Source: Escherichia coli
GTDB lineage: Bacteria > Pseudomonadota > Gammaproteobacteria > Enterobacterales > Enterobacteriaceae
DNA length: 64,000 bases
Assembly (NCBI RefSeq): GCF_024502345.1
Contig: NZ_JALDNN010000001.1
Strand: one strand, 5' to 3'
In this document: one piece after another, positions 22,698-23,462 of the stretch
Numbering within the stretch: position 1 is the first letter of the stretch
Layout: the number at the start of each line of letters is the position of its first letter
Translations under genes and position numbers: made by a program
Notes under the pieces: model-generated
What the model was told of the DNA's origin: nothing
The model's input: the letters and a program-made list of their open reading frames with translations, nothing else
Database searches by the model: none

Positions 22698-23462
22698 ATG
22701 CCCGATATCCTTCATACAATGACAATAATATTGCCGAATTCGGCTCTTCCCTGGAGTCGTGTTAATGATCATAAAAAAAGCGGTGGTCGCTGGCAGCTAA
22801 GCCTGCTGGCGAGTGTGGTAATCAGTGCCTTTTTTCTCAACACAGCTTACGCCTGGCAACAAGAATATATCGTTGATACGCAACCCGGGCATTCCACAGA
22901 GCGTTACACCTGGGATAGTGAACATCAACCTGATTACAACGATATTTTGTCGCAACGTATTCAAAGTAGCCAAAGGGCGCTGGGACTGGAAGTCAATCTG
23001 GCGGAAGAAACCCCTGTGGATGTGACCAGCAGTATGAGTATGGGCTGGAATTTTCCTTTATATGAACAGGTTACAACTGGCCCGGTCGCGGCATTACATT
23101 ACGATGGCACAACCACCTCGATGTATAACGAGTTTGGCGACAGTACTACCACGCTGACCGATCCGTTATGGCATGCCAGCGTGAGTACCTTAGGCTGGCG
23201 TGTTGACTCCCGGCTTGGCGAGCTCCGACCCTGGGCGCAAATCAGCTATAACCAGCAATTTGGCGAGAATATCTGGAAGGCGCAATCAGGCCTGAGCCGG
23301 ATGACGGCGACAAACCAGAACGGCAACTGGCTGGATGTCACCGTAGGCGCTGATATGTTGCTCAATCAAAATATTGCCGCCTATGCCGCGCTATCTCAGG
23401 CAGAAAATACCACTAACAATAGCGATTATCTGTATACGATGGGGGTTAGTGCCAGATTTTAA
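22698..23462 (+). CDS. yhjY: Autotransporter beta-domain-like outer membrane protein YhjY (start uncertain)
   Basis: 254-aa ORF ending in aromatic C-terminal residue (...GVSARF) typical of OM beta-barrels; signal-like LLASVVISAFFLNTAYA; no passenger domain. Confidence 0.7.
   Translation: MPDILHTMTIILPNSALPWSRVNDHKKSGGRWQLSLLASVVISAFFLNTAYAWQQEYIVDTQPGHSTERYTWDSEHQPDYNDILSQRIQSSQRALGLEVNLAEETPVDVTSSMSMGWNFPLYEQVTTGPVAALHYDGTTTSMYNEFGDSTTTLTDPLWHASVSTLGWRVDSRLGELRPWAQISYNQQFGENIWKAQSGLSRMTATNQNGNWLDVTVGADMLLNQNIAAYAALSQAENTTNNSDYLYTMGVSARF

Follow-up and report, generated by a model that had tools for sequence, protein, structure and literature searches.

An open reading frame (ORF) of 254 amino acids (aa) lies on the + strand at positions 22698-23462 of a 64,000-nt stretch of Escherichia coli DNA (contig NZ_JALDNN010000001.1 of assembly GCF_024502345.1; hereafter the window), at the locus of yhjY, and raises the question of what sort of protein bears the RefSeq product name of E. 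coli yhjY, 'autotransporter outer membrane beta-barrel domain-containing protein', while being too short to carry a passenger. An earlier note made from the letters alone had proposed either a decayed autotransporter or a stand-alone barrel. The ORF is present as that note described it, with the C terminus ...YTMGVSARF, and it is a genuine gene locus, a chance ORF being ruled out; the locus was found in 5,422 of 5,426 complete E. coli genomes. The autotransporter β-domain label is itself already in databases, as is an older one, 'putative lipase'. The evidence below indicates that yhjY is very probably the remnant, left in situ by an internal deletion, of a GDSL-esterase autotransporter gene of the EstA/ApeE type, and that it is still a maintained gene. 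Residues are numbered throughout on canonical YhjY of 232 aa, which starts at the ATG equivalent to window position 22765.

The significant match to an autotransporter family that the earlier note had named as its check was found: YhjY matches the Pfam Autotransporter β-domain (PF03797; E = 6.9e-12, 46 bits against a gathering cut-off of 26) and, weakly, TIGR01414 (22 bits against a cut-off of 16). The PF03797 match spans only profile positions 119-253 of 255. An exhaustive search among 1.8 billion representatives yielded both short relatives and proteins of 650-700 aa, the last ~150 residues of which match YhjY 89-232; these long relatives (P0134 and its kin) bear Lipase_GDSL and a complete Autotransporter domain. 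Longer homologues, which the note had suggested comparing within the Enterobacteriaceae, do exist as forms of 662-665 aa, but in Erwiniaceae and Yersiniaceae. BLASTP aligned YhjY with the best of them, P0134 (665 aa, Winslowiella), in two collinear blocks, YhjY 1-66 with P0134 1-69 (E = 4e-7) and YhjY 57-232 with P0134 486-665 (E = 3e-41). Profile-profile comparison (hhalign) of 36 short forms with 24 syntenic long forms placed YhjY 89-232 on long-form residues 513-664 (probability 100, E = 2.8e-44) and the N-terminal stub without its signal peptide (31-88) on 32-100 (probability 97, E = 1.1e-10, score 67, against scores of 8-21 and E of 0.015 or higher for 30 column-shuffled controls of the stub). 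The significant portion of the stub is 31-66, equivalent to long-form 32-69 (E = 2.9e-10), and residues 67-88 alone had no significant hhalign placement (E = 0.28, best at long-form 84-100). The parts of the protein map to the window as follows:

22779-22853 (+): canonical residues 6-30, the rest of the Sec signal peptide (...SLLASVVISAFFLNTAYA), aligned with the long-form signal peptide.
22854-22961 (+): N-block, canonical residues 31-66, remnant of the lipase passenger N terminus (degenerate GDSL block I and RYTWD...P.Y.DIL), placed by hhalign.
22962-23027 (+): junction segment, canonical residues 67-88, spanning the deletion junction and holding a candidate eighth strand, from hhalign and amphipathicity.
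23028-23462 (+): C-block, canonical residues 89-232 and stop codon, from the second half of strand 6 to strand 12 and including the β-signal, placed by hhalign and PF03797.

Descent from a GDSL hydrolase is supported by the homology of retained N-terminal residues 31-66. The VFGDSLSD that is invariant in the 24 long forms (GDSL block I, with the nucleophilic serine) corresponds to IVDTQPG or variable residues in the short forms, which keep the motif RYTWD..HP.Y.DILAE.I; the long-form regions around GGND (126-129) and DxxHP (332-336), which represent the later blocks (II, III, V) with the oxyanion residues and the Asp/His of the triad, sit within the deleted interval, and none of the 36 short forms matches the PF00657 profile even at E = 1. 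YhjY cannot be a lipase, because the block I serine is replaced and the other catalytic-block regions are gone, and it is not an autotransporter in the mechanistic sense, because it lacks a passenger, a pore helix and strands 1-5. The earlier statement that it has no passenger domain is correct in that none is left to display, but residues 31-66 are a remnant of one. The ancestor would have been a protein of about 665 aa with a signal peptide, a lipase passenger, a linker helix and a 12-stranded barrel, in which an internal deletion of about 410-440 codons would have brought the last 6.5 strands directly behind the signal peptide and the first 36-70 residues of the passenger.

A deletion between two DY(D/N)DI repeats (long-form ~60-64 and ~486-490) was initially suspected and then rejected, since in the short forms of Pantoea and E. 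coli the motif is still followed by ILAE(K/R)I, which identifies it as the N-terminal copy, and hhalign puts the right junction at 499-513. A third, 'middle' block matching the LDAPAQV region of the long forms was unsupported (hhalign E = 0.84). Searches of the PDB gave only a chance match with the single YhjY sequence and, with a profile, only 9oqa, another full-length autotransporter.

The deletion can be placed at this very locus because the full-length gene holds the same slot divergent from tag. The earlier note had put yhjY divergent from tag and upstream of yhjX, an arrangement that coordinates and RefSeq annotation bear out:

22044-22607 (-): tag, DNA-3-methyladenine glycosylase I, divergent neighbour and synteny anchor (RefSeq annotation of matching loci).
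22608-22764: tag-yhjY intergenic spacer, 157 nt, read from the sequence.
23691-24893 (+): yhjX, major facilitator superfamily transporter, downstream neighbour, outside the remnant (RefSeq annotation of matching loci).

Three genera, from two families, have a gene of 662-665 aa divergent from tag, with the order yiaD-tag-X (X being the long form) in Winslowiella, where the 157-nt spacer has the same length as in E. coli, and in Paramixta, and the order yiaD-yiaC-tag-X in Serratia liquefaciens. A 658-aa protein of Pantoea ananatis (P0157) was rejected as a positional orthologue, its gene not being adjacent to tag. A scan of one genome per species yielded 184 relatives, from which 80 loci in about 20 Enterobacteriaceae genera were kept; all 80 hold the short form, with tag adjacent and divergent in every one. 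Short forms of 233-236 aa also occur in Pantoea, a member of the Erwiniaceae (loci L095-L098, 5001-5711), in the slot that the long form occupies in Winslowiella, and the flanks of the two are identical on both sides (yiaD-tag-X-~220-aa ORF-dnaT-dnaC). The Pantoea proteins have the same two-block architecture, with the right junction at long-form 499, about 14 residues before the E. coli junction. In a neighbour-joining tree of the C-block, short forms group at only 71.5% bootstrap on two long branches, and the similarity of each short group to the long forms (42-46%) exceeds that between the two short groups (35%). The Pantoea short form may represent a second, independent deletion that led to the same architecture.

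How much of the barrel survived can be read from an AlphaFold2 (AF2) model of the long form, in which the barrel has a predicted local distance difference test (pLDDT) score of 80-93 and the best structural match is EstA (3KVN; E = 7e-28, template modelling score 0.64-0.68). The linker helix of that model (338-384) lies inside the deleted interval, and its strands are the following:

393-404; 419-429; 434-450: long-form strands 1-3.
453-470; 474-496; 499-525: long-form strands 4-6.
528-549; 556-576; 582-604: long-form strands 7-9.
611-632; 637-647; 654-664: long-form strands 10-12.

Because the C-block starts at 513, YhjY retains half of strand 6 and strands 7-12, and on the same strand map the Pantoea short form retains strands 6-12; YhjY has lost the lipase body, the linker helix and strands 1-5. 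Only 36-58 residues precede the barrel block in the mature protein, and they derive from the passenger N terminus. The earlier description of YhjY as a stand-alone barrel and nothing else therefore fails, since it runs only from the middle of strand 6 to strand 12 of 12 and what comes before is passenger remnant.

From these parts a mode of action can be proposed. YhjY is probably exported by Sec, its signal peptide being cleaved after AYA, to judge from the sequence. The β-barrel assembly machinery (BAM) would recognize it through the intact C-terminal β-signal, and it would enter the outer membrane as a small β-protein of non-canonical form, with the conserved N-terminal ~40 residues forming a soluble appendage. 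An extra membrane crossing is needed because seven strands are retained and the C terminus is periplasmic, and the most likely form would be a barrel of eight strands, the new first one being supplied by the junction segment (~72-86, GLEVNLA...). This predicted barrel is a working model, chosen as the most economical.

The short form is conserved in the manner of a maintained gene. All 81 orthologous ORFs, from about 20 genera, are intact and encode 226-237 aa. The ratio of nonsynonymous to synonymous substitution rates (dN/dS; Nei-Gojobori, 171 pairs with unsaturated dS) for each part of the canonical protein, and for tag as control, was as follows:

1-30, signal peptide: 0.37-0.40.
31-66, N-terminal stub: 0.08-0.10.
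67-88, junction segment: 0.17-0.22.
89-232, barrel block: 0.06-0.08.
31-232, whole mature protein: 0.08-0.10.
tag, as control: 0.06-0.07.

The family of short forms is under purifying selection comparable to that on tag. The Pantoea short forms gave 0.14-0.18, with dS near saturation. Of the earlier suggestion of a decayed autotransporter, the origin from an autotransporter thus stands, by deletion in place, and decay in the sense of a pseudogene does not. Truncated products of 146-176 aa (P0064, P0082, P0085) are common in E. coli and Shigella data, including partial Shigella flexneri records, and yhjY seems to have been inactivated repeatedly in some lineages despite its conservation across genera.

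Published data indicate that yhjY is expressed. It is listed as RpoS-dependent in O157:H7 EDL933 (PMC2907692), and a TRIC-seq preprint reports its mRNA, with other outer membrane protein (OMP) mRNAs, as a new target of the σE-dependent small RNA (sRNA) RybB (bioRxiv 10.1101/2025.09.11.675593). A candidate site for this pairing lies at the start of the gene:

22775-22788 (+): predicted RybB seed pairing site (canonical yhjY, codons 4-8), which overlaps the poly-A run.

The RybB seed (nucleotides 1-13 of the sRNA, whose sequence identity was verified with Rfam) is predicted to form a duplex of 12 bp with codons 4-8 at -17.5 kcal/mol. Shuffled sequences attain this energy in 0.9% of cases and tiles of the window in 1.9%. 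The site ends at nucleotide +25 of the coding sequence in most of the 81 orthologues, and their median energy of -13.8 kcal/mol compares with -9.3 in tag and -9.2 in shuffled sequences; these comparisons show a conserved predicted sRNA pairing site in yhjY. In a separate line of work, a preprint on compensation of rifampicin resistance reports the same synonymous yhjY change, S21S, from five populations that had evolved independently, and measured no effect of it on fitness (10.1101/2023.01.13.524028). The S21 codon falls at about 22824-22826 of the window, and the recurrence could reflect a mutational hotspot, an ancestral polymorphism or a regulatory effect.

Several observations weigh against the view that yhjY is a maintained deletion remnant encoding a membrane protein. 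With an alignment of 36 sequences, AF2 gave YhjY a mean pLDDT of 54 and a predicted template modelling score of 0.44, with no confident closed barrel; the low-confidence model has about seven strands and a disordered stub, and a Foldseek search of the PDB with it returned nothing at E <= 0.001. A published I-TASSER model of YhjY has likewise been described as a deformed or broken barrel (PMC7383365). Seven retained strands make an odd number; the β-amphipathicity of the candidate eighth strand (72-86) is no more than intermediate, and in many genera this segment is short. Alignment places the left edge of the deletion only to within long-form 69-100, and the occurrence of long forms in Erwiniaceae and Serratia and of short forms in Pantoea and Enterobacteriaceae needs two deletions or a transfer. 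Since truncated alleles are common, some lineages at least can do without the gene, and the searched literature holds no protein-level detection of YhjY and no phenotype. The lack of a confident fold from any model, the missing phenotype, the frameshifted and truncated alleles that circulate in E. coli and Shigella, and an evolution faster than that of tag (57-76% against 77-90% identity to E. coli) could all be taken to mean that YhjY is a non-functional relic, its frame open by chance and its product misfolded and degraded. We regard this as very unlikely, given 81 intact ORFs of narrow length range in about 20 genera, a dN/dS close to that of tag, a conserved RybB site and reported RpoS dependence; the N-terminal stub, useless in a mere relic, is among the most constrained parts, and the two-block architecture is also under selection in Pantoea.

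Maintenance of the gene leaves the question of what its product forms. The matches to PF03797 and TIGR01414, the signal peptide, the aromatic C-terminal β-signal and the RefSeq name would all suit a complete autotransporter-type barrel that merely lacks its passenger; such a barrel is extremely improbable, however, as PF03797 is covered only at 119-253 of 255, mature YhjY has 202 residues against about 330 for helix and barrel in the ancestor (338-665), and homology to the barrel begins in the middle of strand 6, the residues before it belonging to the passenger N terminus and not to strands 1-5. An oligomer (for example a dimer of 14-16 strands), or a hybrid barrel formed with another OMP or with BamA, would accommodate the odd count of about 6.5-7 retained strands, the failure of AF2 to close the monomer and the weak evidence for an eighth strand. 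The shallow alignment of 36 sequences may alone explain the poor monomer model, and we consider an oligomeric or hybrid form unlikely, though far from negligible. More broadly, it may be suggested, tentatively and with somewhat more doubt than confidence, that YhjY records a change of strand number from 12 to about 7-8 by a single internal deletion whose product survived as a functional protein, perhaps arising twice (in Enterobacteriaceae and in Pantoea) and folding either as a new 8-stranded barrel with a recruited segment or as an oligomeric or hybrid barrel.

The window carries an unusual copy of this gene. The RefSeq protein of 232 aa has the N terminus MIIKKSGGRWQLSLLASVVISAFFLNTAYA followed by WQQEY, and its start codon at 22765 lies 8 nt downstream of a GGAG Shine-Dalgarno site (22753-22756). 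The window has a run of seven adenines (A7) at 22773-22779, aligned with a run of eight (A8) in K-12 (MFDpir) and in the closest strain, and this difference changes the reading frame of the first codons:

22765-22800 (+): canonical start, out of frame in the window, giving an 11-codon peptide, MIIKKAVVAGS, that ends at a TAA stop (22798-22800).
22698-22778 (+): non-native 27-codon 5' extension, MPDILHTMTIILPNSALPWSRVNDHKK, open only through the frameshift, identified by alignment to K-12 and the closest strain.
22773-22779 (+): A7 homopolymer at codons 3-5, the 1-nt deletion that causes the frameshift, identified by alignment.

The ORF reaches 254 aa because of this 1-nt deletion, the yhjY frame happening to stay open upstream into the spacer, where two non-canonical in-frame ATGs occur (22698 and 22719). 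The start at 22698 and the length of 254 aa, which the earlier note had taken at face value, are by-products of the deletion and not features of the native gene. The signal-like N terminus that it had described is present in the canonical protein; in the 254-aa ORF the stretch is internal, because 27 non-native residues precede it. Annotation of A7 alleles by the Prokaryotic Genome Annotation Pipeline gives 247 aa from the ATG at 22719. Downstream of the A-run the window is 97-99% identical to E. coli YhjY, so the window ORF, frameshifted or mis-sequenced at codons 3-5, should not be read as the protein. Because the deletion separates the start linked to the Shine-Dalgarno site from the reading frame, the window copy would be a null or weak allele, unless it reflects a homopolymer sequencing error. 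Read from the canonical ATG, A7 forms a slippery heptamer, A_AAA_AAA, in phase, and canonical YhjY could be restored exactly by a -1 slip of the ribosome (MIIKK joined to SGGRW) or by transcriptional slippage that adds one A. The predicted RybB pairing is equal for the A7 and A8 alleles.

The A8 form is found in about 99% of E. coli, and all E. coli matches to a 961-nt query covered at least 962 nt. An exact 66-mer with A7 occurs in 45 of 5,412 complete genomes; these are spread across unrelated lineages and include sets of related isolates that share it (three OkiPb strains; MLI104K1 and K2). Such sharing, and the location of the run at codons 3-5, which is typical of contingency switching, argue for a real, heritable frameshift that either abolishes function or switches yhjY on and off by slipped-strand mispairing. 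Assembly errors at an 8-mer homopolymer would produce the same scattered frequency of about 0.8%, many database variants of YhjY carry obvious multi-frameshift noise, and a tract of A7/A8 offers little length for efficient phase variation. Clusters of 253-254-aa proteins from public assemblies, considered as independent evidence of A7, proved non-discriminating, several of their representatives being multi-frameshifted. Over 32 kb the window and its closest relative (99.57% identity) differ by only three indels, each a 1-bp deletion in the window, and two of these fall in 8-mers (the yhjY A-run and a T-run at 33214), a pattern equally compatible with real mutation and with homopolymer or indel errors of sequencing. 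At 33214, between tRNA-Pro and dppA, the window has T7 where the closest genomes have T8; this third 1-bp deletion in 32 kb hints at under-calling of homopolymers in the assembly. At 29959 a single A, present in the two closest genomes, is missing, which truncates an lpfD-like fimbrial gene (about 29131-30186) so that its ORF ends at 29990 instead of about 30186; the breaking of a gene by one of three such deletions is a further point for error. A heritable frameshift is accordingly quite possible for the window, although the balance tips slightly away from it.

The closest known systems to YhjY are the GDSL-esterase type Va autotransporters EstA of Pseudomonas aeruginosa (3KVN), ApeE of Salmonella and Lip-1 of Photorhabdus. 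Like them, YhjY has a homologous signal peptide, first ~36 mature residues and last ~150 barrel residues, including ...GVSARF, and its slot is that of an orthologous full-length gene in Erwiniaceae and Serratia. Unlike them, it is without about 410-440 internal residues, the catalytic serine (GDS replaced by VDT/x), the linker helix and strands 1-5, and it can neither hydrolyse esters nor display a passenger. It resembles classical autotransporter β-domains (PF03797; NalP, 1UYN; EspP, 2QOM) in passing the gathering threshold and in keeping the C-terminal β-signal, but has 6.5 of 12 strands and no pore-plugging helix. With the 8-stranded barrels OmpX, OmpA (N-domain), PagP and OmpW it shares a membrane part of about 145-160 residues, a Sec signal and a terminal aromatic residue, and, with ompA, ompC and ompW, reported control by RybB (10.1101/2025.09.11.675593). 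In contrast to a member of those families, YhjY has no sequence relationship or confident structural relationship to them, apart from a weak PF13505 match in 1 of 36 members, so the likeness is a hypothesis about mechanism and not about family membership. YhjY has been grouped with YaiO, YcgI and YdbH as K-12 predicted OMPs that are modelled as deformed or broken barrels (PMC7383365). Unlike a strain-specific pseudogene, it is intact in about 20 genera and shows purifying selection across them.

The surroundings of the gene in the window hold a few further features. A σ70-like site occurs in the tag-yhjY spacer at 22655-22682 (+), as a consensus match in a promoter scan, and no known RNA family was recognised by Rfam within 22300-23900. 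Between yhjX and eptB, an operon like lpfA-E for long polar fimbriae lies at 25226-30719; an lpf operon is present at this site also in O157:H7 and some other lineages, and K-12 is without it. The closest strains (FDAARGOS_943 and FDAARGOS_944) have ISEc60 between yhjX and lpfA, which is absent from the window.

The recognition of yhjY as a gene with an autotransporter label is ordinary, since both were known, and PSISearch2D had already linked YhjY to Photorhabdus Lip-1 (PMC6637259). The searchable literature, which leaves subscription-only papers outside it, contains no description of the two-block deletion architecture, of positional orthology to full-length EstA-type genes, or of 6.5 strands retained under selection. 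What is added is the anatomy of a stub-barrel fusion that is kept under selection. This anatomy corrects both of the misleading names under which YhjY is annotated, 'lipase' (in Cronobacter and Klebsiella) and 'autotransporter', and a half-barrel explains the broken barrels returned by structure predictors. YhjY is a tractable test case in E. coli K-12 of how BAM handles a barrel minus five strands and of how such a barrel is stabilised in evolution.

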